The notes beneath the pieces were generated by a model. It ran no database searches. It saw only the letters and a program-made list of their open reading frames with translations, and had not been told where the DNA came from. Positions 2,659-63,089 of a stretch of 64,000 nt of DNA are shown piece after piece. Origin of the DNA: Candidatus Saccharimonadota bacterium (GTDB taxonomy: Bacteria > Patescibacteriota > Saccharimonadia > Saccharimonadales > JAXHMH01); contig JAXHMH010000002.1 of assembly GCA_034521515.1 (NCBI GenBank), forward strand, positions 437,761-501,760, read 5' to 3'. The stretch's first letter is position 1; each line of letters starts with the position of its first letter. A program made the position numbers and the translations under genes.

Positions 2659-3104
2659 GTTTAGATTCTTCACAACCGTACGCAGCAAGCTACGTTTTAC
2701 TTAACAAAAACGGGAAAAATGCCTTCGTTCTTCGGGGTGAAGGGTGTGGCTGGATGTCTGGATACTATGGCTTGCCCTCTGGAAAGATTGATAAAAATGA
2801 ATCAGCAACGGTAGCTGCAACCCGTGAAGTAGAGGAAGAAGTCGACGTAAAAATAAAGCAAGAAAAATTACGTCACGTGTTAACAATGCATCGTCATGAA
2901 AAAAATGATAAATACCCAGAGTGGGTGGACTTTTACTTTGAAGCAGACGAATGGGAGGGTGATGTTCGCAATTCCGAACCTCACATGCACGATGAACTCG
3001 CTTGGTTCTCATCTGATGAATTACCAGAAAATATTATCCCAAGTGTTCGTGCAGCACTTGAAGCCATCCAAAATGATGAGAACTTTACCGAGTACGGTTT
3101 TTAA
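2655..3104 (+). CDS. NUDIX hydrolase
   Basis: The Nudix box is present: GKIDKNESATVAATREVEEEVDV, matching GX5EX7REVXEEXGU. Confidence 0.75.
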   Translation: MSLDSSQPYAASYVLLNKNGKNAFVLRGEGCGWMSGYYGLPSGKIDKNESATVAATREVEEEVDVKIKQEKLRHVLTMHRHEKNDKYPEWVDFYFEADEWEGDVRNSEPHMHDELAWFSSDELPENIIPSVRAALEAIQNDENFTEYGF

Positions 3105-3135
3105 GCACCACTTGCCAACTACTTTTTGCCAACTA

Positions 3136-4431
3136 CTAACTACTGCGAACGAAGTTCTCTCTAAGCCATTCGTCTAAGCTATCGCCGCCGCCGCCAGCCA
3201 TGGCCACTACCATGTCGCCAGAATCTAGATGTTTTTGGATAACTTCTTTGAGCTTTTCGTCGCGCTCCAAGGGCTCTGCTATAGCTGGATTACTGAGGTG
3301 GGTAATCATTTCGGCAGGCGGAATAACGCGTTGATCAGGATCCTCGCGTGCTAAGTAGCTCGGAATCCAGTAGACTTTGTTGGCACCATCAAAACAATCT
3401 TTGTAGTCATCTATCATGTAGTGCTGGCGGCGATTGGTTAAAGGTTCGTATATCACGACAAGTTTGTTATCTCCGGACATCTCAAGCGCTACGCTCATGG
3501 CGCCACGGATTTTTTCTGGCGTGTGGGCGTAATCAGTGTAGAGATTAGGCACCAGCTCCTCCATGCGACGCTGGAGGCCAGGGAACTTGTTCATGTGTTC
3601 CACTAGGTCTGCAACCGGAGTTTTGGTTATTTTATGAGCTGATTGTATAGCCAGCCAAGCGTCTAGCCGGTTATACAAACCAGCCAGTTTAATATCATCA
3701 ATATGTTTGTGGCTGCTATCTAGGATTTCTAGTCCGTCACGTGGCGCTAGGCTTAGATAATCTGCATCTTCTTGCCATAAATAGGTGTGTTGGCTTTGAG
3801 AAATAAACTCCTGAAAGGCTTGTTGGTAATCCTCACGGGTGGGGAATATCTCATGATGATCCCATGTAACACCTGTAATTAGGCTAGTATGAGAGTTATA
3901 CGACAAAAAATTACGGTCAAACTCATCACATTCTAGAACAAAATATTTGGAACTTGCTTTATATTGACCCATATCGCCAAACGGTATTTTTGCCCCAACG
4001 GAATAACTCAGTGGGATGCCGAGCTGTTTGAATAGCCACACTGTCATAGCGGTGGTTGTTGTCTTGCCGTGGGTGCCAGCCACAGCAATTAGCTTGAGAT
4101 GTTTTTCGGAGATGATGTAATTAAGTAGCTCGTCACGCTTGCTCATCTTGATATTTTGCTCGCGGCAGTAAGTAAGCTCTGGAGCGTTTGGGTTTTCAAT
4201 TGCTACGGCTGAAGAATAAACGTACCAGTCAATTGGGTCTTCTTGGTGGACGTGTTCGATTTCGTCACGCTCTTGGCCGATGTGAATATTGACAATACCC
4301 TTACTTCGTAAGTAGTGGATATACTGAGAATCTTGCTTGTCGGAGCCAGATACTTCGTGCCCAGCTTGTTTGGCTATGAGGGCTAGGGGGCCGATGGCTG
4401 TCCCACCTATCCCACTAAAGAAAATATGCAT
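3136..4431 (-). CDS. Mur ligase family protein (UDP-N-acetylmuramate-L-alanine ligase MurC / Mpl-like)
   Basis: 431 aa. The N-terminal Rossmann motif is GIGGTAIGPLA and the Mur ligase P-loop is VAGTHGKTTTTAM. The C-terminal Mur ligase domain is also present. Confidence 0.75.
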   Translation of the reverse strand: MHIFFSGIGGTAIGPLALIAKQAGHEVSGSDKQDSQYIHYLRSKGIVNIHIGQERDEIEHVHQEDPIDWYVYSSAVAIENPNAPELTYCREQNIKMSKRDELLNYIISEKHLKLIAVAGTHGKTTTTAMTVWLFKQLGIPLSYSVGAKIPFGDMGQYKASSKYFVLECDEFDRNFLSYNSHTSLITGVTWDHHEIFPTREDYQQAFQEFISQSQHTYLWQEDADYLSLAPRDGLEILDSSHKHIDDIKLAGLYNRLDAWLAIQSAHKITKTPVADLVEHMNKFPGLQRRMEELVPNLYTDYAHTPEKIRGAMSVALEMSGDNKLVVIYEPLTNRRQHYMIDDYKDCFDGANKVYWIPSYLAREDPDQRVIPPAEMITHLSNPAIAEPLERDEKLKEVIQKHLDSGDMVVAMAGGGGDSLDEWLRENFVRSS

Positions 4432-4437
4432 GCTCTA

Positions 4438-4468
4438 AGTTTCGCATCACAGCGGTCTGCTGTCCAGC
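4438..4468. repeat. 31-bp direct repeat copy A1 (AGTTTCGCATCACAGCGGTCTGCTGTCCAGC)
   Basis: It is identical to 4703..4733. It lies 7 nt upstream of the Mur-ligase start codon, inside a GC-rich 515-bp intergenic region. Confidence 0.8.
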
Positions 4469-4702
4469 TGAAGCTGGCCACTCCACCGCTGTTCTTGGCA
4501 CATTGCGGCCGCTCATGCTCCAGTGCTCCTTCGGCGTATTGCATATACGCCTCTGTCCGCGCTTCGCTTGACCGACCACACTGCACTCAAGTGCGAAACT
4601 TAGGCTGGCTGCAGGTAAGTAGAAAGTATCAAGTGTTGCGACAACCATGTCCGTGTTTCATCGCTTCATCCGTCCTGCACTCAAGTGCGAACCTCGTGGC
4701 CG

Positions 4703-4733
4703 AGTTTCGCATCACAGCGGTCTGCTGTCCAGC
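4703..4733. repeat. 31-bp direct repeat copy A2
   Basis: It is an exact copy of 4438..4468. Partner repeats CTGCACTCAAGTGCGAAAC (4580..4598) and CTGCACTCAAGTGCGAACC (4675..4693) carry the reverse complement of the A 5' end. Confidence 0.8.
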
Positions 4734-4945
4734 GAGTTGGCAGTTGGTAGCTAGTAGATAGGAGTTGGGGGGTGCTGTGCGCTGGCAGGCTCCAGCATTA
4801 TTATCCAGTATCAAGTACTAAGTACTAGGTACTGAGCGCAGCTCCATCCTTTATCTATTACCTATCAACTATCACCTATCAATTTCCGTCTCCCGTCTCC
4901 AACACTGTGCTACACTTGACATGAGTAAAACTAAACATAAAAAGT

Positions 4946-6157
4946 ATGCTAAAAACACTAATTTCACGTATATTTCGCCGCCATCACTACTGGCGTAACA
5001 TTGGGTTTGATGAGCTCAGTGAGCTATATACGAGCATGATGTTTAGAAACCTGGCTCTAAGCTTGGTCGGTATATTTATACCGATATACCTATACGAACT
5101 TGGGTTTAGTCTGCCGATTATATTGTCGTTTTACGTGGTTATGTTTCTAACACGCATACCGGCAGATTTTATTACAGGTTATTGTGTAGCCAAATTTGGC
5201 CCTAAACACACTATGTTTTTAAGTTACATAGCCTATGTCATTGCGTTATCACTTTTTACAAGCTACGAACAATTCAATTGGCCAATTTACTTACTAGCAG
5301 TCGTGTGGGGTATTAGCGGCAGCCTGTTCTTCATTGCATTTCATGTTGATTTTTCTAAGGTGAAGCACAAAAAACACGGTGGTAAAGAGCTGGGGGTCTT
5401 AACTATAATGGAGCGACTTGGAGCTACGTTAGGGCCAATTACCGGTGGCGTTGTGGCCGCATTGTTTGGAGCACAGTACACCTTTTTAGCCGCCACATTG
5501 TTTTTTATGACCGCTTTAATCCCATTATTTTTTACTGCAGAGCCGGTCAAGACCAGGCAGCATCTAGACTACCGAGGGCTACCTATCAAGAAGCTTAAAC
5601 AGGATTTTATCTCGCACGCGTCACTTAGTGTCGAAAACAGTACCCATATTGCTATCTGGCCGTTGTTTCTAGCGCTATTTGTGTTTGTTGACAATATTTA
5701 TCTTCAGATTGGCGCCCTAACTTCATTTGCTGTTATTGTGTCGGTGATTCTTGCCCGAGTTATCGGTCAAACGGTTGATAATAAAAAAGGTAGGCGTTTA
5801 CTAAGAATTGGCTCACGGGCAAATATAATTCTACATGGACTACGGCCAATGGTCAGTTCGTTTGGGCTCGCGCTGTCAGTAAACTTTATTCACGAGATTT
5901 TGACTACATCTTTCCGCTTACCGTATATAAAAGGTATGTATGATCGAGCCGATGAGCTAGAGGGGCACAGAATTGTCTATATTGTTTCGCTAGAAGCTCT
6001 TAGCTGTATTGTTAGAGCAGCATTCTACGGGTTGCTGGCAATTTTGGCGCTTAGTTTCAGTTCATTTAGTGTGTTTGTTGCTGCTTTCGGGTTAGCGGCA
6101 ATTGCTTCATACGGTATCACGCTAGAAAAATTCCCAGCTTTGAATGTAAAAAAATAG
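4946..6157 (+). CDS. Polytopic membrane transporter, probably MFS-type
   Basis: 403 aa with about 12 predicted TM helices in a 6+6 layout and a central cytoplasmic loop. The family call rests on topology only. Confidence 0.5.
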   Translation: MLKTLISRIFRRHHYWRNIGFDELSELYTSMMFRNLALSLVGIFIPIYLYELGFSLPIILSFYVVMFLTRIPADFITGYCVAKFGPKHTMFLSYIAYVIALSLFTSYEQFNWPIYLLAVVWGISGSLFFIAFHVDFSKVKHKKHGGKELGVLTIMERLGATLGPITGGVVAALFGAQYTFLAATLFFMTALIPLFFTAEPVKTRQHLDYRGLPIKKLKQDFISHASLSVENSTHIAIWPLFLALFVFVDNIYLQIGALTSFAVIVSVILARVIGQTVDNKKGRRLLRIGSRANIILHGLRPMVSSFGLALSVNFIHEILTTSFRLPYIKGMYDRADELEGHRIVYIVSLEALSCIVRAAFYGLLAILALSFSSFSVFVAAFGLAAIASYGITLEKFPALNVKK

Positions 6158-6169
6158 TAAGCTACCTAT

Positions 6170-6796
6170 ATGGCAAATAAACGATTACTTCATCATTTGT
6201 GGATTAAACTCAAGCCAATTAATGCATGGTACTTTTTGATAGCCTGTTTACTGTTTACGGGTATTGCAGTTTGGGCTCTGCGTGAAAATAACCTAAAGAT
6301 GATTGAACTGCGTGATGAAGTTATTGCTGCTGATGAAGCAGGCGAAGGCGTAGATGAAGCACTCGCAGAACTGCGGCAACACGTCCACTCTCACATGAAC
6401 GCTGATTTGAGCGGCGATGACACGTCAATTTATCCACCACTCCAATTACGTCATACCTACGAACGTCTTAAAGATAAGAATGATAATGAGGAGGTTGCTC
6501 AGCACAATCGCCAAGTTGCCAAACGAGCAGCAACTGTTTGTGAAAATCGACATGGACCCGGCTCTTTGGATCAGCGGGTGCAGTGCGTAGAAACGTACAT
6601 TACCCAAAACAGCTTAGAAGAGAAGGAAGAGGTCAAAGTTCCAAAAGAGTTGTATCAATTTGCTTTTGTTTCACCGGTCTGGTCGCCAGATTTGGCAGGG
6701 TGGAGTATTGTTCTAGCAGTACTGTTTTTTACTCTGTTTACGGTTCGTTTCACACTTGAGCGATGGTTGCGGTACCAGCTGCACAATCACCTATAA
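6170..6796 (+). CDS. Hypothetical membrane protein (TM helices at N- and C-termini)
   Basis: 208-aa ORF. It lies in the same orientation directly downstream of the transporter gene. Confidence 0.45.
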   Translation: MANKRLLHHLWIKLKPINAWYFLIACLLFTGIAVWALRENNLKMIELRDEVIAADEAGEGVDEALAELRQHVHSHMNADLSGDDTSIYPPLQLRHTYERLKDKNDNEEVAQHNRQVAKRAATVCENRHGPGSLDQRVQCVETYITQNSLEEKEEVKVPKELYQFAFVSPVWSPDLAGWSIVLAVLFFTLFTVRFTLERWLRYQLHNHL

Positions 6797-6851
6797 GATT
6801 GTAGGGTCTCGTCTAAAACACAAGGTTAATCAAAGAGAGACGTCATAAACT

Positions 6852-6883
6852 AAAAACACCCGGGCATATTTCCGGGTGTTTTT
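6852..6883. terminator. Bidirectional intrinsic terminator
   Basis: The sequence is AAAAACACCCGGGCATATTTCCGGGTGTTTTT. It has a 7-bp GC stem flanked by an A-run and a T-run, between convergent genes. Confidence 0.7.
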
Positions 6884-6918
6884 AATCCTTAGTACCGATA
6901 ATCGGTGTTGGTTGTCAA

Positions 6919-7665
6919 CTACGGAGTGGTTTCGCCTTCTGTCTCAGGCAAGACCGGTGTTGTGTCTCCTTGAGTTGGATCTTGTACTGTCTCAGAACCA
7001 GCTGGTTCAGTCTCTTGGCTGTTGTTAGTGTTGCCATTTACTGATTGTTGAGAAGTTTCCTCTTCACAATCTTGTCCTTCTGGGAACTGTCTTACGTATT
7101 CTTTAACAGCACCGGGAACTGAGCTTGGGCTATCATCATCTTTTAGGTTCTCCCAAAATAGAATCTGATCGCGGTTAATGACCATCTCGTTGGTTGGTCT
7201 ATGTAACTCACAACCAAGCTTTACTAGGGATATATCATCACCTGCTGGCTGTTGCGTTTGGCCAGTTTGTTCTGGTTGCACCTGTTGGTTCACTCGTAGG
7301 TAGAAGATACTGCTAAGGCGCATATACTGCTTATTGATGTCGTCAATGGTACCAAAGTATACCTGGCCGCCATTGAGGAAGACGGCTTGCATCTGTTTGT
7401 CATTTACAAAGCGTGCTTCACCGCGTGATCCGCCGAAAACCATAAATCCAAGTACGGCAACAATCAGTACTGTCGAAGAAAACAGCAAAATAATAGATGC
7501 CAGCTGGAGACCTTTTGATGTAAAGATATTGCCTCTTCGTTTGCCGCCATCTTGGCTGTTTTGGTTATTGTCACTATGCATACTCCCGTTTCCGCTTTGT
7601 TGTTGAGCCGGATTTGGCGAGTGAGCTGATGGGTTTGGCCTATTGCCACGGTTCATAAAATCCAT
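6919..7665 (-). CDS. Hypothetical protein with Q/N-rich N-terminus, one TM helix and an acidic/Thr-rich C-terminus
   Basis: 248-aa ORF. The TM helix is LASIILLFSSTVLIVAVLGFMVF. Confidence 0.45.
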   Translation of the reverse strand: MDFMNRGNRPNPSAHSPNPAQQQSGNGSMHSDNNQNSQDGGKRRGNIFTSKGLQLASIILLFSSTVLIVAVLGFMVFGGSRGEARFVNDKQMQAVFLNGGQVYFGTIDDINKQYMRLSSIFYLRVNQQVQPEQTGQTQQPAGDDISLVKLGCELHRPTNEMVINRDQILFWENLKDDDSPSSVPGAVKEYVRQFPEGQDCEEETSQQSVNGNTNNSQETEPAGSETVQDPTQGDTTPVLPETEGETTP

Positions 7666-7905
7666 TTATAGAATCCACCTTCTTTATTTATTGCTTACTT
7701 ACAGAGCTTAGTGTAATACATAAGCGTATTACCGTGCAACTGTCTTATTGCCGTGGTCATACAGTTGTGTTAATAACTGCGATACTACCCCTGTTAGTCG
7801 TTCTTATGCACGTGGTTGCAAGGTGTAAAAGCTGTTGACAAGAGGAAACACCCAAGAGTATGGTAAAGATACCATTACTAAATAAGAGAGGGAGATGTTA
7901 TAGCA

Positions 7906-8100
7906 ATGGCATACAAGCACACAAACTCCAAGGGTGTAACGTACTACTTAAATTCTAAGGACGTAACACTACGCGGTGGAAAGCAGCAGAGAATTTACTA
8001 TTTCAGTAAAGATCAACGTCCAGAGGCAACAGATTTGCCTGATGGTTACACAGTAAACGAAAACCCACGCAACGGCTTCTTGACTGTTAAAAAGAGCTAG
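7906..8100 (+). CDS. Small hypothetical protein (64 aa)
   Basis: A TTGACA-N17-TATGGT-like promoter lies at about 7835. The gene is followed by its own terminator at 8131..8160. Confidence 0.4.
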   Translation: MAYKHTNSKGVTYYLNSKDVTLRGGKQQRIYYFSKDQRPEATDLPDGYTVNENPRNGFLTVKKS

Positions 8101-8130
8101 TTTGTTTTAAAACCAGATATAAAAATATTT

Positions 8131-8160
8131 AAACACCCAGGTATAGCTTGGGTGTTTTTA
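8131..8160 (+). terminator. Intrinsic terminator (AAACACCCAGG..CTTGGGTGTTTTT)
   Basis: Stem-loop followed by a U-tract. It belongs to the same sequence family as the terminators at 6852 and 35674. Confidence 0.65.
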
Positions 8161-8182
8161 TTTTGCTACACTAACCTTTGAG

Positions 8183-8941
8183 ATGAAAAACACTCTTGTA
8201 GAAGCTAAAAAACTTGTCAAACACTATAGTGGCTCAACCGTTGTTGATAAGGTAAGTTTTAGCGTAAAAAAGGGTGAAATATTTGGAATTCTTGGGCCAA
8301 ATGGTGCTGGTAAGACGACTACGCTTGAAATGCTAGAAGCGATGCGTCCGATTGACGAAGGCCAGGCAACCATCAACGGTATTGATGTTGCCAAAAATCC
8401 ATGGGAGATTAAAGAAATTATCGGCGTGCAACCTCAAACGCCGGCCTTTGAAGAAAAGACCAAATTAACAGAGTTGCTTGAGTTATTTGCTGCGACATAC
8501 GGCCGCAAGGTTGACGCTCGTAAGTTGTTAGACGATGTTCAGCTTTCAGATAAATACCACAGTTACGCCGAAAAACTTTCTGGTGGCCAGAAGCAACGTT
8601 TTTCTATTGCTACGGCTCTGGTTAATAATCCGAAAGTATTGTTTTTGGATGAACCGACTACCGGACTTGATCCACAAGCTCGACGAAATTTATGGGATTT
8701 AGTAGAAAGCATTCGTAAACAAGCTGTTACGGTTATTTTGACTACGCACTACATGGAAGAAGCAGAAGTGTTATGTGACCGAGTTGCAATTATGGACAAT
8801 GGCAAAATTATCGCACTTGATTCACCCAAACAGCTCGTAAAGAACTTGCTTAATAAAGGTTTCAAGAAAAAACAGCATGTCGAACAGGCAGATTTAGAAG
8901 ATGTGTTTATCGATTTGACTGGCCGGGAGCTAAGGGAATAA
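8183..8941 (+). CDS. ABC transporter ATP-binding protein
   Basis: Walker A is GPNGAGKTT, the signature motif is LSGGQKQR and Walker B is LFLDEPTTGLD. Confidence 0.9.
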   Translation: MKNTLVEAKKLVKHYSGSTVVDKVSFSVKKGEIFGILGPNGAGKTTTLEMLEAMRPIDEGQATINGIDVAKNPWEIKEIIGVQPQTPAFEEKTKLTELLELFAATYGRKVDARKLLDDVQLSDKYHSYAEKLSGGQKQRFSIATALVNNPKVLFLDEPTTGLDPQARRNLWDLVESIRKQAVTVILTTHYMEEAEVLCDRVAIMDNGKIIALDSPKQLVKNLLNKGFKKKQHVEQADLEDVFIDLTGRELRE

Positions 8942-10427: not shown

Positions 10428-10459
10428 TGTGTAAATATGATTTAAATCATATTTACACA
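10428..10459. promoter_or_regulatory. Perfect 32-bp palindrome TGTGTAAATATGATTT|AAATCATATTTACACA (candidate operator)
   Basis: Read directly from the sequence. It ends 4 nt before the ATG of the 10464 ORF. Its core AATATGATTTAAATCATAT is shared with 28285..28304. Confidence 0.6.
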
Positions 10460-10463
10460 AACC

Positions 10464-11144
10464 ATGTATTTTATATGCCCCATAATCTGGTTATTTGCGA
10501 TTAAGATGTATATGATACAGGGCATGAGTGAGAAGCAACTGCAGTTTTTTGCGTGGGGTATTAGTGTCGGGTCGGTTTTGCTGGCTATTTTGGCATGGGG
10601 GCAGGATTTTCGGTGGCAAATTAATGATATGACTCCGTATCAATGGTTCCCGCTTTTGGGTCTGATTGCTTTTAGCCTTATGTGGGCGCACTACGTAGCT
10701 AGTGTTGTCCGGCAACACAATAAAATCGAGCCTACTGTGCTCAAGCGTTACTTTGATAGTACCAGCGTAGTGGTGCTGATTGCTATTTTGTTACACCCGG
10801 GTCTCCTGGCGTACCAGTTAGTAGAAGATGGCCTAGGCAGACCGCCGGATAGTTTTTATGATTATGTTGGTCAGGCTATGGGGTTATCTATCACACTTGG
10901 CTACGTGGCGCTCGGTGCCTTTTTACTGTATGAATTTCGTCATTGGTTTGGTCAGAGGTCATGGTGGCGGTTTATAAGCTATGCGAGCGATGTGGCAATC
11001 CTTCTCATTTACTTGCATGCGTTACGGCTCGGTAGCCAGCTTGTCAGTGGCTGGTATCTCGGCGTTTGGTATTTTTACGGCGCGACTTTACTGGCGTCAC
11101 TTGTATATATTCACTCCAGACGTCTGCGCAAACCAAAAGTTTAG
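10464..11144 (+). CDS. Hypothetical polytopic membrane protein
   Basis: 226-aa ORF with at least 6 TM helices. The true start may be an internal Met at 10506, 10512 or 10524, because the palindrome abuts the first ATG. Confidence 0.5.
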   Translation: MYFICPIIWLFAIKMYMIQGMSEKQLQFFAWGISVGSVLLAILAWGQDFRWQINDMTPYQWFPLLGLIAFSLMWAHYVASVVRQHNKIEPTVLKRYFDSTSVVVLIAILLHPGLLAYQLVEDGLGRPPDSFYDYVGQAMGLSITLGYVALGAFLLYEFRHWFGQRSWWRFISYASDVAILLIYLHALRLGSQLVSGWYLGVWYFYGATLLASLVYIHSRRLRKPKV

Positions 11145-11932: not shown

Positions 11933-12289
11933 ATGACAGAACAACTTAATCTACCGATGGATTCAGAACCGACACCGCCGGAATTTGATGCCGATGCGGT
12001 AGCTGAGCATATTGCTGAAAATGCAACTGAGTATGACCCGAATACTCGTGCTCAGCAGCGTCTAGATCGAAGTGGGGTTGGGGGCGGGATAAGGGCCGGC
12101 GTGGATGGAGACCTTTCTCGGGGAGAAGAGCCTGCAGTAGATGTGACTCAAGAGACTACAGTGCAGCCTCAGCGTGGAACGCATGAAGCACCTTCAGAGT
12201 GGCGTATGACTGATGAAGAGCGAGCTGCAGCACCCGCTGGTATTATTGCCGCCCGTGAAGCCTTAAGTAAAGGCGATGATAAATCATAG
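11933..12289 (+). CDS. Hypothetical acidic protein
   Basis: 118-aa ORF with no recognisable motifs. Confidence 0.4.
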   Translation: MTEQLNLPMDSEPTPPEFDADAVAEHIAENATEYDPNTRAQQRLDRSGVGGGIRAGVDGDLSRGEEPAVDVTQETTVQPQRGTHEAPSEWRMTDEERAAAPAGIIAAREALSKGDDKS

Positions 12290-15126: not shown

Positions 15127-15148
15127 AATGTATTTCCCTAGTTTTGCT

Positions 15149-15181
15149 AAACGCGCCAGTCGACTGGCGCGTTTATTTTTT
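15149..15181 (+). terminator. Intrinsic terminator AAACGCGCCAGTCGACTGGCGCGTTTATTTTTT
   Basis: 7-bp GC stem followed by a T-run. A near-identical palindrome recurs at 33626..33653. Confidence 0.75.
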
Positions 15182-21705: not shown

Positions 21706-22299
21706 TTATTTAAGCGATTGCCATAAGTGTAAACTGGCAATCGTACGGTAGGGTGCCCAGTTTTCAGCGATTGCAGTAAGCTCTTTTTTGGGAGGTACTT
21801 TATCCCAACCGTAGAGCTTTTTCATGGCGTTTTGTAGCCCTAAGTCATCCGGTGCAAACACGTCCGCTCGACCAAGTGTAAATATTAAGAACATCTGTGC
21901 TGTCCAGACACCGATACCTTTAATTTCTGTCAGTTCAGTAATAACTTGTTCATCAGTTCGCTGACCTAGATGATTATATACATCTGGATTGTTGGCGAAG
22001 TGCGCGGCAAGGTCGCGTATGTAGCCAACTTTTTGTTTAGATAAACCTATGGCGCGAATCTCTTCATCGCTAAGCTGCAAGACTTTTGCGGGTTTTATGC
22101 CGGTGGCGGCCAACAGACGACCGAATATGGCTGTAGCTGCCGCTACAGAAACTTGCTGCCCAACAATGCTACGACAAAGTGAGGTAAAGTAGTCTTTTCT
22201 TGGTGCGCGCAAGTTTAAGGTCTGTGACTTGATGAGCTCGCCAAGCACAGGGTCTTGTTTAATCAAGATAGGTTCAGCCGTTTTTAGTAATTGTTCCAT
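21706..22299 (-). CDS. HhH-GPD DNA glycosylase (3-methyladenine DNA glycosylase II / AlkA-like)
   Basis: The helix-hairpin-helix motif is IKGIGVWTAQMFLIF and the conserved Asp sits in GRADVFAPDDLGL. Confidence 0.75.
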   Translation of the reverse strand: MEQLLKTAEPILIKQDPVLGELIKSQTLNLRAPRKDYFTSLCRSIVGQQVSVAAATAIFGRLLAATGIKPAKVLQLSDEEIRAIGLSKQKVGYIRDLAAHFANNPDVYNHLGQRTDEQVITELTEIKGIGVWTAQMFLIFTLGRADVFAPDDLGLQNAMKKLYGWDKVPPKKELTAIAENWAPYRTIASLHLWQSLK

Positions 22300-22326: not shown

Positions 22327-24378
22327 CTACAGCTGGAGACGGCGGAGGAACTGCGCATTCACAGCGACAATAATTGTCGATAGTGACATTAGTACAGCTC
22401 CGATAGCCGGCGAAAGCACAAAACCGAGCGAGGCGGTTACGCCGGCTGCAAGCGGGATTGCTACGGCGTTGTAGCCTGTAGCCCAAACCAGGTTTTGTAC
22501 CATCTTGCGATAGGTGGCCTTAGATAAGGTAACGACTTTTGTTACACCGCGCGGATCGCTGCTGGCCAGCACGATTCCGGCTGATTCAATGGCAACATCC
22601 GTGCCTGCTCCAATCGCTATACCCACGTCTGCCTGTGTTAGAGCGGGCGCGTCATTGACACCATCACCAACCATAGCTACTTTATCGCCATTAGCCTGCA
22701 GCTTCTTGACGACGTCCGCTTTATGCTGAGGCAATACTTCGGCAAAGTACTCGTCGACACCCAGCTCATTAGACACCCAGGCCGCAACGCCGTCAGAATC
22801 TCCGGTTATAATTGCAACCCGTTTACCAGCGCGCTGTAAGTCAGCTACTGACTGTTTGGATTCCGGTCGGATGACATCGGCGAGTGTAATAGCTCCGATT
22901 ACTTTATTGTCGCGCAGTACGTACACGACGGTTTTCCCGTTTTTGGCGGCGGTAGCAGCAGCCTCTTTTAGGTAGTCGGGGATTGTAACACTTTGTTTGG
23001 TTAGCAGTTGTGAGCCGCCTACATGAACTGTCTTTCCGGCAATGCTGGCCTGGGCACCACGTCCCGCAAGAGCCTTGAAATTTTTGGCTGCTTTAATCTG
23101 TATGTTTTTGTCCTTGGCGTAGGTCACGATTGCCCGAGCAATCGGGTGTTCTGATTCATTTTCAACTGCCGCCGCGGTGGTAAGCAACGCAGTCTCGTCC
23201 TCTTTCGTTATAACGTCGATAACGCCCTGTTTACCGGTGGTAAGTGTGCCGGTTTTATCAAACAGCACGACGTCGAGGTTCCGAGCAGACTCTAGCGCCA
23301 GGCGCTCGCGGATAAGCAAGCCGCTGTTAGCAGCCTTGGTGGTTGAAATAGCTGTCACCAGTGGAATAGCCAAGCCAAGCGCGTGCGGACAGGCAATTAT
23401 AAGTACCGTTACGACCCGCTGGATGACAAATGCGCCTGATTGATCGCTAAACACCCCCCAGCCCATTGCAGTAAGCAGCGCTGCACCTAGTGCGACAAAA
23501 GTAAGATAAAAAGCGGCTTTATCTGCTAGAACCTGTGTTTTTGATTTACTGCTTTGTGCCTCGCTAACGAGCTTCATTATGCCCGCCAGTGCGGTGTCGT
23601 CGCCTAGTTTAGTTACTTTAATCGTGAGCGAGCCGCTGTCGTTGACAGTTCCGGCTATTACTCCAGACCCGATGTCCTTTTTGACTGGCTTTGACTCCCC
23701 AGTGAGCATTGCTTCATTCACGTCAGATTGTCCTTTTGTGACCGTACCATCGACTGGAACGTTTGATCCGGGGCGTACCAGTACTTTATCACCGACTCTC
23801 AGCTCGCTAATCGGTATAGTTTTCGTGCCTGCATTGGTGAGAACTTCGGCTTCATCTGGTAATAATTTTGCAAGTTCTTGCAGTGCGCCCTGAGCGTTCA
23901 TAACAGAGGCCATCTCTAACCAGTGACCTAGCAACATAATTGTTATAAGTGTTGCTAGTTCCCACCAGAAATCCACGCCCGCAAGTAGGTTCAAAGAAAC
24001 GGCCAAACTGTACGCAAAGGCTACAGTTATCGCAAGTGAAATAAGAGTCATCATGCCGGGCTGGCGGTTTTTTATTTCTGAGCGGGCACTTTTTAAAAAC
24101 ACTAAGCCACCGTAGAAAAATATAAAGGTGCCTATAACAGGCGATATCAAGGTACTGCCCGTAAACATCGGCAAGTTATAGCCAAGCCACTCCATAATAA
24201 ATGGGGAGTAGGCGACGACTATCAAGCTTAGCAGTAAACTCAACCAGAACTTTTTCTTGAACATATCGGGATTATGACCGGCATGCTTGTCGTGATCGTG
24301 TGAGTCGTTACCTTCTTGATGTGACGGTTTTTGTGGTTTTGGAGTGCTATTTGTATCGCAACAGCTGTGGTCTTGCAT
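22327..24378 (-). CDS. copB: Copper-translocating P1B-type ATPase, CopB-like (His-rich N-terminus, CPH motif)
   Basis: The motifs TGES, CPH in TM6, DKTGTLT and [10 protein letters not shown] are all present. The N-terminus is His-rich ([10 protein letters not shown]) and there is no HMA domain. Confidence 0.9.
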
Positions 24379-24379
24379 G

Positions 24380-24880
24380 TTAGGCTCCTCTGGACGTTTT
24401 ATGTTTTATGTATTGCTTGGGGTTCTTCTCGAAGGTGTGCTTACAGCCACTGGCGCAGAAAAAGTAAGTATCTTTACCGTGAGTTACTTGTTCTGAAGCC
24501 TCGGTCACACCCATGCGCATACCGCAGACCGGATCTTGCACCAGAGGATATAGCGATTCAAGATCAGTATCCTGGAAGCTAAGATTAGATAACTTGTTTT
24601 GGTTAGCCAAGAATTTACGGATGAGGCTGCAAGCTTCGGCTATGCGCTCATCTTTAAGGGAGTAGTATACGGAAGTTCCGGTTTTCCGTGTGGATACAAT
24701 GCCTACTTGTCTGAGCAAGCTCAGGTGCTGTGAAACGTTGGATTGGGATATACCAAGCATACTAACCATCTCAGATACTGACATTTCTTTGTGGGTAAGG
24801 AGTTGAATTATCTCTAGGCGCTTTTGATTGGCAATAACCTTAAAGACGTCCTCTTGGAGTTCAAACAATTTTTCGTACAT
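24380..24880 (-). CDS. ArsR/SmtB-family metalloregulator fused to a C-terminal YHS/TRASH metal-binding domain
   Basis: The winged HTH is MSVSEMVSMLGISQSNVSQHLSLLRQVGIV. The C-terminal domain CGMRMGV...YFFCASGCKHTFEKNP is YHS/TRASH-like. The stop lies 2 nt from the copB start. Confidence 0.75.
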   Translation of the reverse strand: MYEKLFELQEDVFKVIANQKRLEIIQLLTHKEMSVSEMVSMLGISQSNVSQHLSLLRQVGIVSTRKTGTSVYYSLKDERIAEACSLIRKFLANQNKLSNLSFQDTDLESLYPLVQDPVCGMRMGVTEASEQVTHGKDTYFFCASGCKHTFEKNPKQYIKHKTSRGA

Positions 24881-24895
24881 GGAAAAAGCTTAACA

Positions 24896-24929
24896 TATAT
24901 ATTCAAGTATTAGAATACTTGAATATATA
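24896..24929. promoter_or_regulatory. 34-bp perfect palindrome TATATATTCAAGTATT-AG-AATACTTGAATATATA (candidate ArsR-type operator)
   Basis: Read from the sequence. It lies 16 nt upstream of the metalloregulator start codon and has 16-bp arms with a 2-bp spacer. Confidence 0.65.
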
Positions 24930-24985
24930 GTATTCTATACTAACCTCTCTAAAGATAAGTTGCGAAACGAGTATGTTTGGTAGTT

Positions 24986-25372
24986 TTAGCCTAAGTAAGC
25001 GTCGGTTACGATGCCATCCACGATAGTAAAGTTTACTCGGCTGGGGTTGTAATCCATAGTAACCGGGAACCTTTCACCGTCCCGTGCAACAATACGATAA
25101 GTGTACCCATCTTGTTCGGCTCGCGATATAGCCTCTTCTTCACTAAGCCCAATGTAGGCATTGACTCTGTCTTGGTCTTCGCCGTTAGGCTCAGATGGAT
25201 TCGGTACTTCCTGGTTGGTGTCTGGCGATGACGTGTTATCATTTTCCGGTGCCTGCGCAGGTTTGGTAAGCAGAAACACGATTATTAAAGATAATATTAA
25301 TACCGTTACGCCAAGCAAAACAGACAGTAGCTTGTAGTTTTTGAGTTGTTTATGATGTTCCACGCGCTTCAT
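24986..25372 (-). CDS. Hypothetical protein with N-terminal TM anchor
   Basis: 128-aa ORF. Confidence 0.4.
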   Translation of the reverse strand: MKRVEHHKQLKNYKLLSVLLGVTVLILSLIIVFLLTKPAQAPENDNTSSPDTNQEVPNPSEPNGEDQDRVNAYIGLSEEEAISRAEQDGYTYRIVARDGERFPVTMDYNPSRVNFTIVDGIVTDAYLG

Positions 25373-28284: not shown

Positions 28285-28304
28285 AATATGATTTAAATCA
28301 TATT
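28285..28304. promoter_or_regulatory. 20-bp perfect palindrome AATATGATTT|AAATCATATT (second copy of the 10428 motif)
   Basis: It lies in the divergent promoter region between the beta-lactamase-family gene (-) and the AbrB-like ORF (+). The sequence continues CATATCATATTTACA, as at locus 1. Confidence 0.6.
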
Positions 28305-34417: not shown

Positions 34418-34537
34418 ATAACACCTCTGGAGTTAGCTCAACAGAGGATAGTTTCTTTATACCATGCATTTATAAATATATCAAATATGTCGTATTCCTC
34501 CACCGTCCTTGCATTATGAAGAACCCGACCCAGAATC

Positions 34538-34574
34538 AAGAAAAGAGTCCCACTTGAAGTGGGACTCTTTTCTT
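34538..34574 (-). terminator. 16-bp perfect hairpin abutting the tRNA-Met 3' end (AAGAAAAGAGTCCCAC-ttgaa-GTGGGACTCTTTTCTT)
   Basis: Read from the sequence. The stem begins at the tRNA CCA. Confidence 0.6.
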
Positions 34575-34650
34575 GGTAGCGGCGACAAGACTTGAACTTG
34601 TGACCTCCGGCTTATGAGTCCGGCGCTCTAACCAGCTGAGCTACGCCGCC
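34574..34650 (-). tRNA. tRNA-Met (CAU), elongator-like
   Basis: Manual cloverleaf: acceptor GGCGGCG/CGCCGCU with a G1.U72 wobble, D-loop AGCUGGUUA, anticodon loop CU-CAU-AA, variable loop AGGUC, T-loop UUCAAGU, discriminator A, and CCA encoded. Confidence 0.75.
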
Positions 34651-51109: not shown

Positions 51110-51130
51110 TTCCAAGACCAGGTCTTGGAA
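51110..51130. repeat. REP-like palindrome TTCCAAGAC-CAG-GTCTTGGAA (solo copy, with outer inverted arms about 51088..51150)
   Basis: The same 21-bp core flanks the RAYT gene at 62361 and 63063. Confidence 0.7.
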
Positions 51131-59462: not shown

Positions 59463-60065
59463 TTAAAGTACGTCTTTTTCCTTTAAATAAAGTACCAGCT
59501 GCTGATACGAGTCAAATAAAATAGGAGTGTAGCCGCAGACATTGGCTGTACTCAAGCTTTTTTCTGAATCATCAATAAATATCAGCTCTTTTAACTCGAC
59601 CCCCAGATCTTTAGCAAAAATATTAAACGCTTCTGGTTCGGGTTTCACAAAACCTGTTTCGGCGGATATGTGAAAAACATCAAAGTGCTTATCAAGACCT
59701 TTTTGCCGCATCATGTCGGCTTTTTCTTGAGAATTATTACTAAGTAGACCTACTTTGTAGCCTTTAGTGCGGAGTTGGTCTGCTAGCTTTAGGACATGAT
59801 AATTTGGATTATAATCCCCAAAGTCCAAACTTAGCTTCATAACGGCATCAACCTTATCAAGTTTGTTTAAATCGGCGAGAATCAACGGCCACAACTCTTC
59901 ACGCGTAATATCTCCGCGATTGAATTTTTTATTATGGGTGTAGTATGCCTCCAGATAGCTGTCGGCGCTAATACCCAACAGCCTAGAAATTTCTTGACCT
60001 AAATGTTTACCCGGCTTTCCGTTTAATACTCCACCCCAATCAAATCCGATAGCTTTGTAGATCAT
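59463..60065 (-). CDS. HAD-superfamily hydrolase (subfamily IA-like)
   Basis: Motif I is IGFDWGGVL, and the motif IV acidic pair is FIDDSEKS. Confidence 0.7.
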   Translation of the reverse strand: MIYKAIGFDWGGVLNGKPGKHLGQEISRLLGISADSYLEAYYTHNKKFNRGDITREELWPLILADLNKLDKVDAVMKLSLDFGDYNPNYHVLKLADQLRTKGYKVGLLSNNSQEKADMMRQKGLDKHFDVFHISAETGFVKPEPEAFNIFAKDLGVELKELIFIDDSEKSLSTANVCGYTPILFDSYQQLVLYLKEKDVL

Positions 60066-62360: not shown

Positions 62361-62381
62361 TTCCAAGACCAGGTCTTGGAA
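62361..62381. repeat. REP-like palindrome TTCCAAGACCAGGTCTTGGAA (left flank of RAYT)
   Basis: Identical core to the copies at 51110 and 63063. Confidence 0.75.
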
Positions 62382-62422: not shown

Positions 62423-63040
62423 TTAGCTTGCTAGCGAGTGCTCGATCTCCGTTAACATATCCTTGTGTTCCTTATAGTCTTCAACAAATTTCAGATAATC
62501 GTGAGCATCCGTAAACAGTTCCAAAATTCGGGTTGGCTGTATCCACTCGACAGACTTATACCCAAGATAGTGGGGAAGACTTGAATACGGCCACTCTTTG
62601 TAAGCAACCGGATTGAGGTGTATATAACGAGAAATATGGTGTAAATACTCATCAGAAGTGATCATACTGGCCTTAAACCTATCTTGAAAAAGAGGACCGA
62701 CACGTTTATGTTTTTTATTAAAATACGAGGTGTAGCTACCACAAACATTTTTTATCAGATTTTTCAGGGCATTCTCCTCTAGCTGGTAAACAAGCAGGTG
62801 GAAATGGTTTGGCATAAGGCAAAAAGCCAATAGTTCAATATCGTTATAAAGCCACGGATATTGTCGACCCTTTGTATCTTTTGCTGGTTCCCTCGAAAGA
62901 TAACGTTTGAGTAGATTTAAAAAAACTGAGTAGTCTTCGTCGTCTAAAAATATCTTCCGCTTATCAACCCCTCTGTTATAAACATGGTAATGCGTATTTT
63001 CTATGTAGATTTTTCGAGAATTCCGGCTAGCCATTAACAC
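62423..63040 (-). CDS. REP-associated tyrosine transposase (RAYT; IS200/IS605-like HUH Y1 transposase)
   Basis: The HUH motif is MPNHFHLLV, the N-terminal motif is THYHVYNRG, and a Tyr-containing C-terminal helix is present (SDEYLHHISRYIHLNP). The gene is flanked by identical palindromes. Confidence 0.75.
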   Translation of the reverse strand: MLMASRNSRKIYIENTHYHVYNRGVDKRKIFLDDEDYSVFLNLLKRYLSREPAKDTKGRQYPWLYNDIELLAFCLMPNHFHLLVYQLEENALKNLIKNVCGSYTSYFNKKHKRVGPLFQDRFKASMITSDEYLHHISRYIHLNPVAYKEWPYSSLPHYLGYKSVEWIQPTRILELFTDAHDYLKFVEDYKEHKDMLTEIEHSLAS

Positions 63041-63056
63041 AATTATACAATAAAAA

Positions 63057-63089
63057 CCCCAATTCCAAGACCAGGTCTTGGAATTGGGG
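63057..63089. repeat. REP-like palindrome CCCCAATTCCAAGAC-CAG-GTCTTGGAATTGGGG (right flank of RAYT)
   Basis: Perfect 15-bp stem with a 3-nt loop. Confidence 0.75.

Follow-up and report, generated by a model that had tools for sequence, protein, structure and literature searches.

A predicted copper-efflux operon headed by an ArsR-YHS fusion regulator in a Candidatus Saccharimonadota bacterium

The DNA analysed here is a 64,000-nucleotide stretch of contig JAXHMH010000002.1 (assembly GCA_034521515.1) from a Candidatus Saccharimonadota bacterium, referred to throughout as the window, and the system in question is a two-gene unit on its minus strand that encodes an ArsR/SmtB-YHS fusion regulator and a P1B-3 (CopB-type) copper ATPase and is preceded by a perfect 34-bp palindrome. 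The unit is best explained, with good probability, as an autoregulated, copper-inducible efflux operon in which the promoter is held shut by the apo-dimer of the regulator until Cu(I), taken up by the YHS domain, lowers the affinity of the dimer for DNA. This explanation is carried by the domain architecture and motifs of the two proteins, by the conservation of operator sequence and position in orthologous loci, and by the linkage of the regulator family to copper ATPases. Within this genome, scans for copies of the operator and of repeats covered the 64-kb window.

Organization of the locus

Both genes lie on the minus strand, with the regulator gene first. The open reading frame (ORF) of the regulator, at 24380-24880, encodes 166 amino acids, and that of the ATPase, at 22327-24378, encodes 683. 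The regulator stop codon (24380-24382) and the ATPase start codon (at 24378) are arranged as TAA-C-ATG, which leaves a gap of 1 nt. A Shine-Dalgarno sequence for the ATPase, GAGGAG (24385-24390, minus strand), was read from the sequence 6 nt 5' of its ATG, within the end of the regulator gene. The palindrome, TATATATTCAAGTATT CT AATACTTGAATATATA on the minus strand, occupies 24896-24929, or -49 to -16 relative to the regulator ATG, and is regarded as a composite predicted operator; its two 16-nt arms are 100% complementary and end 15 nt (24881-24895) before the ATG. A preliminary description of this DNA had reported a regulator, an ATPase and a perfect 16-2-16 palindrome at this locus, and all three were present on the minus strand at the positions it gave, with two spacings corrected: it had counted 2 nt between the two genes and 16 nt between palindrome and regulator. 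The regulator is 100% identical to a protein (P0001) of a Candidatus Saccharibacteria metagenome-assembled genome, where it is encoded on a 706-kb contig.

The regulator

Fold and sequence both place the regulator in the ArsR/SmtB family. It matched the Pfam profile HTH_5 (PF01022) at 52.4 bits (cut-off 22) over residues 19-63 and the NCBIfam model of ArsR/SmtB metalloregulators, NF033788, at 93.8 bits (cut-off 55). The winged-helix DNA-binding core delimited by the Pfam match (24692-24826, minus strand) lies inside a full ArsR fold of residues 1-95. An AlphaFold2 model built on 35 homologues, with a mean predicted local distance difference test (pLDDT) score of 83.7, consisted of this complete fold, a low-confidence linker at residues 100-112, and a small domain of a beta-hairpin and a helix at residues 113-157; pLDDT was 88-97 over residues 1-90 and 76-89 in the hairpin and helix of the YHS domain. 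The helices of the model (2-16, 19-27, 35-42, 46-58 and 78-94) and its strands (62-67 and 70-75) follow the ArsR/SmtB order alpha1-alpha2-alpha3-alphaR-beta1-beta2-alpha5, and Foldseek comparison of the N-terminal part with SmtB, CzrA, HlyU, Rv0081 and NolR gave TM-scores of 0.82-0.86 relative to the target.

The canonical alpha3/alpha3N Cys and alpha5 Asp/His ligands were not found in the regulator sequence. Ser-Val-Ser stands at the position of the ArsR Cys-Val-Cys, no Cys is present in residues 1-83 and no His in residues 53-133, and neither the alpha3/alpha3N nor the alpha5 site is therefore possible in canonical form. The lone Cys of the ArsR domain, Cys84, varies in the alignment of the 35 homologues. 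The alpha3/alpha3N and alpha5 sites mark metal-sensing subgroups and not the entire ArsR/SmtB family. Because the alpha3 Cys and alpha5 His are absent, the sole conserved thiolate cluster of the regulator is that of its YHS domain. The winged-helix assignment and the replacement of the usual alpha3/alpha5 metal site, both put forward in the preliminary description, are thus borne out by profile and sequence.

The YHS domain (PF04945; residues 114-160; 24401-24541, minus strand) is proposed to hold the Cu(I) sensor site. It scored 44.1 bits against a gathering score of 30.3 and covered profile positions 1-46 of 47. In the 35 homologues, down to 51% identity, Cys119, Met121, Arg122, Phe141, Cys142, Gly145 and Cys146 were invariant, giving a constant C-x-M-R ... 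F-C-x-x-G-C, in which the Cys residues of the regulator are spaced C119-x22-C142-x3-C146. The strict TRASH pattern was reportedly given by Ettema in 2003 as C-x2-C-x19-22-C-x3-C. This four-Cys motif was not found in the YHS region of the regulator, because the invariant Arg122 fills the position of the second Cys, and the only TRASH-named Pfam profile to match, PF24273, reached 16.7 bits, below its threshold of 27. The C-terminus had originally been called a YHS/TRASH domain, with a domain search named as the check; the YHS half of that name stands, while the strict TRASH half fails on both profile score and the count of three Cys, and TRASH applies loosely, in the sense of a superfamily.

The ATPase

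Judged by its sequence signatures, all of which are in place, the ATPase is an ordinary member of the P1B-3/CopB group. It matched TIGR01511 (copper-translocating P-type ATPase) at 589 bits (cut-off 397), and TIGR01525 as well. The protein carries the motifs CPH, GYN(x)4P, MSxST (as MSLST(x5)N) and DKTGT and has six His in residues 1-35; no CxxC was found in its first 150 residues, and no Pfam match to a domain of heavy-metal-associated (HMA) type. CPH, GYN(x)4P, MSxST and a His-rich N-terminus are the motifs that define P1B-3 pumps (PMC5552934), which were first assigned to Cu2+ and, according to Purohit 2018 as cited in PMC7830388, later reassigned to Cu+. The initial classification from the CPH motif and His-rich N-terminus, as P1B-3/CopB and not CPC/HMA CopA, agrees with every signature motif.

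Distribution of the family and linkage to copper

Sequence comparisons suggest that ArsR-YHS proteins form a family of copper regulators that is uncharacterised, centred on the candidate phyla radiation (CPR) and equipped with a well-defined operator, its functional steps being predicted. A word-indexed search returned 559 homologues, and a precomputed YHS match was present in 113 of the best 120 of them. In an exhaustive search of 50%-identity cluster representatives, 36 of the best 150 matches were single-stretch and full-length, at about 140-200 amino acids, and a metagenome scan with the single protein yielded four full-length relatives at 49-55% identity. The named ArsR-YHS members all belong to uncultivated CPR/Patescibacteria (Saccharibacteria/Saccharimonadales, Collierbacteria, Parcubacteria/Paceibacterota and Chisholmbacteria); the few bins under other taxon labels may be mis-assignments. 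No ArsR-YHS homologue of a cultured organism was found by tblastn against plasmids, where matches from Streptomyces and Dietzia (91-92% query cover) were set aside as plain ArsR proteins with no YHS motif. The architecture is already present in automated annotation, for example as 'ArsR family regulator/YHS domain-containing protein' at JGI. The literature found on ArsR with YHS or TRASH was limited to archaeal stand-alone TRASH proteins and Lrp-TRASH regulators, and the accessible portion of a 2024 review of bacterial metal sensing mentions neither 'YHS' nor 'TRASH'.

ATPases adjoin most ArsR-YHS genes. They are of the CPH/His-rich type in the window and at orthologous loci L001, L011, L013, L124, L126-L128 and L083, and of the CPC type at L002, L005-L010, L014, L018 and L019; the copper-type motif YN(x4)P was present in most of the linked ATPases scored. 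In close relatives, genes for DUF411 and DUF305 proteins join the locus.

The gene content of the related loci varies. In L124 (1441-2908), L127, L128 and L129-L132, an operon upstream of the regulator and divergent from it encodes DUF411 (PF04214, E = 4.4e-18) together with two conserved ORFs of about 178 and 145 amino acids without a Pfam match, which are candidates for new copper-handling proteins; DUF305 is often nearby. DUF411, both of these ORFs and DUF305 are all absent from the window. Between regulator and ATPase, four loci have a further ORF of 86-91 amino acids (L124 3502-3762, L126 826-1086, L127 3499-3774 and L129 1120-1389) with a weak SHOCT-like match (E = 3.6e-4), and this ORF is likewise absent from the window. 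In the Collierbacteria locus L013, positions 2700-8495 are a long operon, headed by the operator, for three small membrane proteins, the ArsR-YHS regulator, ORFs of 163, 321 and 280 amino acids, and a CPH ATPase with a CxxC-containing N-terminus, a copper-associated gene set larger than that of the window.

Operator and promoter

The 110 nt upstream of the start codon were compared for 28 loci encoding full-length ArsR-YHS proteins, and a core was counted where at least 14 of 20 consensus positions agreed. A 20-bp core, ATAT[T/G]CAA[G/A][T/C]AT[T/G]C[T/G]AATAT, was present upstream of 24 of the 28 regulators and ended 25-28 nt before the ATG in 20 loci. It is an imperfect inverted repeat, ATATTC-N8-GAATAT, with self-complementarity at 16-18 of 20 positions in the G15 and TTTGAA variants and at 12-14 in the type found in the window.

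A weight matrix was made from 19 distinct orthologous cores, with the window left out of training. Scanned over the window, it gave two sites, both inside the palindrome, and a next best site of 8.1 bits. The distal copy of the family operator, ATATTCAAGTATTCTAATAC (24907-24926, minus strand; 26.2 bits), stops 26 nt short of the ATG, a placement shared with the orthologues. The second copy, ATATTCAAGTATTAGAATAC (24899-24918, plus strand; 20.8 bits), has the opposite orientation, lies 8 bp toward the -10 box and fills the promoter spacer. On these matrix scores the 34-bp palindrome consists of two copies of the family operator that overlap in opposite orientation with an offset of 8 bp, which accounts for its unusual length. 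Weaker second sites at +8 were seen in about ten other loci (including L001, L002, L005, L009, L018, L126, L128, L129 and L130), and in the nearest relatives (L001, L128, L129 and L130) pairing in the long palindrome is incomplete, at 11-12 of 13-14 positions. Since most loci have the distal 20 bp only, it is this stretch that is conserved, and the perfect symmetry is a local addition to it.

Block-shuffling the window 20 times gave longest perfect arms of 8-11 nt, and the 16-mer arm of the palindrome had no second match in the window at two or fewer mismatches. The preliminary description had presented the element as an operator of unusual length and had named recurrence at unrelated loci, as a generic repeat, as the outcome that would tell against it; the palindrome proved to be single in the window, and of the operator claim the length was upheld, whereas the unit kept family-wide is the distal 20 bp.

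A predicted extended -10 element, TGTTAAGCT (24895-24887, minus strand; hexamer TAAGCT at 24892-24887), directly follows the palindrome and is itself followed by TTTTCC and then the ATG of the regulator, before which no Shine-Dalgarno sequence was found. The same arrangement, TGnTAnnnT with the hexamer beginning 12-13 nt before the ATG and no Shine-Dalgarno sequence, occurs in 20 of the 28 loci. The distance of 6-7 nt between extended -10 box and start codon, together with the lack of a Shine-Dalgarno sequence, implies a leaderless mRNA, and the regulator mRNA is predicted from this arrangement to start at or near the A of the ATG. A spacer of 17 nt puts the -35 hexamer on core positions 12-17, which read TTCTAA in the window and TTCGAA or TTTGAA elsewhere, and the palindrome of the window covers the -35 region and the whole spacer of the predicted promoter.

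In other CPR lineages the core holds a different place on the promoter. At L013, whose site played no part in training and so gives independent support, a site scoring 29.6 bits is placed after a TTGACA-17-TAAGAT promoter and before the first ATG of an operon to which both the regulator and a CPH ATPase belong; at L004, L015 and L018 only 6 nt part the core from the ATG, and it overlaps the -10 box or the transcription start. The site is thus always on the core promoter while its position within it varies, which fits a repressor and not an activator. Where close relatives have a divergent DUF411 operon, in six cases of six core positions 3-8 read TTG(A/C)AT as the reverse complement, and exactly 17 nt further on a TAnnnT box faces that operon; in these relatives a single 20-bp operator would contain two -35 hexamers, back to back. 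Neither a divergent gene at the cop locus nor a DUF411 homologue is present in the window.

Proposed mechanism and alternatives

From the architecture, the motifs and the operator we infer DNA binding, the direction of regulation, the metal, its ligands and the transcription start. A dimeric ArsR-type repressor would bind the 20-bp imperfect inverted repeat that holds the -35 region of its own promoter, and in the window the second, overlapping mirror-image site would extend the contact across the promoter spacer, so that the promoter would be closed to RNA polymerase while the repressor is bound. Cytoplasmic Cu(I), and probably Ag(I) too, would be bound by the YHS domain through Cys119, Cys142, Cys146 and possibly Met121. 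Metal binding would lower the affinity for DNA and allow the leaderless bicistronic mRNA to be made, from which the ATPase would be translated by way of its own Shine-Dalgarno sequence, 1 nt past the regulator stop codon, and would export copper. There is precedent among ArsR/SmtB repressors for binding, at times as multimers, to promoter-overlapping inverted repeats whose centre is 2 nt (PMC8790569).

Several points weigh against this explanation. The only YHS-like match in the PDB is the C-terminal region of the phenol hydroxylase PHN, which is not copper-sensing, and ArsR and YHS domains were not found together in any PDB entry. The nearest sequence relatives of the DNA-binding domain are HlyU, SqrR and BigR, none of them a metal sensor, and HlyU is an activator by name in its PDB entries. 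The inter-domain geometry of the model is uncertain (predicted template modelling score, pTM, 0.60; linker pLDDT about 50), and an allosteric route therefore cannot be traced in it. Both hexamers of the predicted promoter, TTCTAA at -35 and TAAGCT at -10, are weak, the 12-bp overlap of the two operator copies leaves simultaneous binding by two dimers in doubt, and none of the papers searched has both 'ArsR' and 'YHS domain'.

One alternative holds that the YHS domain is not a Cu(I) sensor but a structural Zn site, or a sensor of Zn, Cd or Hg, of thiol oxidation or of persulfide, with the ATPase linkage reflecting a broader metal or redox response. The phenol hydroxylase region is the only solved relative of the profile, the N-terminal domain resembles the persulfide/redox sensors SqrR and BigR, and three Cys are able to bind many soft metals, all of which would suit such a role. 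The linked transporters examined, however, are of the copper type (CPC or CPH, YN(x4)P in most of those scored, MxxSS or MSxST) and none has Zn/Cd motifs, while DUF411 and DUF305 genes occur at the same locus in close relatives. The Cys pair of SqrR and BigR is moreover impossible here because residues 1-83 hold no Cys, and YHS domains are themselves known in copper ATPases, as the Pfam family description has it. On balance we think a role other than copper sensing rather improbable.

The direction of regulation could also be the reverse, with a copper-dependent activator or dual regulator that stays on the DNA and, with copper, helps RNA polymerase at a poor -35 element, as proposed for archaeal CopR. 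The weak -35 hexamer of the window would fit this, but extended -10 promoters can do without a good -35 element. The operator centre, near -36.5, is close to a class II activator position; at L004, L013, L015 and L018, however, the motif lies over or downstream of the -10 box, against the ATG, which would be unworkable for an activator. The likeness of the DNA-binding domain to HlyU speaks for activation, as does the CopR of P. furiosus, which has a helix-turn-helix (HTH) and a TRASH domain and activates transcription (PMC7830388), whereas the ArsR/SmtB repressors of PMC8790569 bind inverted repeats on promoters that they repress. Activation is accordingly judged unlikely, and the copper-released repressor is retained as the explanation.

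It is very improbable that the palindrome is a structural element, either a hairpin in the RNA, serving to terminate or insulate transcription from the same-strand gene upstream (24986-25372), or a repeat of mobile or REP-like (repetitive extragenic palindromic) kind, since, although it would form a 15-bp RNA hairpin (-19.7 kcal/mol, z-score -2.6) with a five-T run 8 nt downstream and true repeated palindromes do exist in the window, its sequence is conserved and not just its pairing, the distal 20 bp are kept even where the upstream gene is divergent and there is nothing to terminate, the hairpin has few G-C pairs, a T-run that is not adjacent and no place in the list from the terminator scan, and no other copy in the window and no Rfam match in 24300-25100 were found.

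Comparison with known systems

Copper sensors are among the best-studied metalloregulators. The regulator resembles SmtB, CzrA, CadC and ArsR in its winged-helix fold (TM-score 0.82-0.86, 28-39% identity) and its matches to PF01022 and NF033788, and in being encoded first in an operon with a P1B ATPase. It differs from them in having neither the alpha3/alpha3N Cys nor the alpha5 His/Asp, its thiolate cluster being placed in a separate 47-residue YHS domain beyond a low-confidence linker. To our knowledge, all ArsR/SmtB sensors have the sensing site within the fold or at the dimer interface. This applies also to BxmR, the ArsR-family Cu/Ag sensor, whose metal site is inside the ArsR fold, in contrast to the appended domain of the window regulator. 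The operators of SmtB, CzrA, CadC and ArsR are similar in being A/T-rich inverted repeats with a 2-nt centre that overlap the promoter (PMC8790569), but that of the window is a 20-bp core duplicated in overlap and not an imperfect 12-2-12 repeat. The canonical 12-2-12 consensus, AATAxxTGAACA-xx-TGTTCAxxTATT, was compared by eye and rejected: the arms of the palindrome resemble its halves in swapped order, and neither flank completes the site.

Archaeal CopR senses copper by a C-terminal TRASH domain (PMC7830388). Like CopR/CopT of Sulfolobus, Pyrococcus and Thermococcus and VNG1179C of Halobacterium, the regulator combines an HTH with a C-terminal Cys domain of TRASH/YHS type, is encoded beside a copper ATPase, and has a semi-palindromic site in a shared or divergent promoter region (PMC7830388, PMC3600143). 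The archaeal proteins, however, have an Lrp/AsnC-type HTH, form octamers and include at least some activators, whereas the window regulator is bacterial and has the ArsR-type dimer fold; its YHS domain also has three Cys (C-x22-C-x3-C) against the four of their TRASH domains. Because its HTH is of ArsR type by profile and fold, and not of Lrp type, the regulator falls outside the CopR/CopT family and is a functional analogue, not a member.

The ATPase shares CPH, GYN(x4)P, MSxST, a His-rich N-terminus and the lack of an HMA domain with the CopB pumps of Enterococcus hirae, Archaeoglobus fulgidus and Sphaerobacter thermophilus, and is set apart from them by a short N-terminal tail (about 40 residues) and an extra Cys-Cys pair at residues 6-7. 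Its gene is paired with that of an ArsR-YHS regulator, whereas the cop operon of E. hirae is under the control of CopY. The role proposed here, copper-dependent derepression or activation of a copper-exporting P1B ATPase, is that of CueR, CsoR, CopY and BxmR, but the regulator is unrelated in sequence to the MerR, CsoR and CopY families, none of which is among its Pfam matches.

In CPR bacteria transcription factors are very few, and hardly any regulation has been characterised. Taking the observations together, we lean slightly towards a broader interpretation: that ArsR-YHS proteins would make up a bacterial Cu(I) sensor class of their own, not studied before and possibly the main means of sensing copper in the Patescibacteria/CPR, which has lost the in-fold sites and reads copper through a fused YHS domain, convergently with archaeal CopR; that one repressor acting on two back-to-back -35 hexamers would switch both the leaderless regulator-ATPase mRNA and the divergent DUF411 operon; and that the 34-bp palindrome would be a two-register version recruiting a second dimer. 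If true, the handing over of sensing to a fused YHS domain would be a new allosteric design in the ArsR/SmtB family, and the poorly defined YHS domain would gain a testable role. Copper regulation in many CPR bacteria appears to fall to the ArsR-YHS family, and with a defined operator, a predicted promoter and invariant ligand residues the system could be studied in vitro without culturing the organism.

Other features of the window

Just distal to the palindrome, a further GTATTC/GAATAC unit at 24930-24943, within a 6-3-6 palindrome TAGTAT-TCT-ATACTA (24928-24942), may be an extra weak half-site. On the other side of the cop genes, and on their strand, a gene for an HhH-GPD base-excision glycosylase (21706-22299, minus strand) begins 27 nt past the stop codon of the ATPase. 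A TAnnnT box stands 8 nt ahead of the glycosylase ATG, and the interval from the ATPase gene to the glycosylase gene contains no predicted terminator; the glycosylase gene may be served by a leaderless promoter of its own or may in part share a transcript with the cop genes.

A G+C-rich palindrome, TTCCAAGACC-A-GGTCTTGGAA, was found in three copies in the window (62361-62381, 63057-63089 and 51110-51130), and at 63057-63089 it is lengthened to 16-1-16. An ORF at 62423-63040 (minus strand), which has a Y1/IS200-like transposase domain (PF01797, E = 3.9e-10), lies between two of the copies, and the set resembles a repeat of REP type accompanied by its REP-associated tyrosine transposase (RAYT). 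It illustrates a generic repeated palindrome in this genome, unlike the single-copy cop operator. Further long, perfect intergenic palindromes comprise a 19-1-19 element at 34537-34575 in a divergent intergenic region, a 16-0-16 element, TGTGTAAATATGATTTAAATCATATTTACACA, at 10428-10459, 4 nt before an ORF at 10464-11144 and with its 20-bp core again at 28285-28304, and a 14-0-14 element at 15148-15175 upstream of a DivIC-like gene. Such palindromes are therefore not unique to the cop locus, and these three are possible operators of other regulators.

Many genes that stand first in their operons in the window lack a Shine-Dalgarno sequence and have, 6-9 nt ahead of the start codon, a TAnnnT box that often takes the form TGnTAnnnT (for example the starts at 11933, 14424, 15226, 17748, 48466, 57454, 59463-60065 and 62423-63040), and internal genes of operons have GGAG-type sites. 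To judge from these starts, leaderless mRNAs appear to be common in this Saccharibacteria genome.

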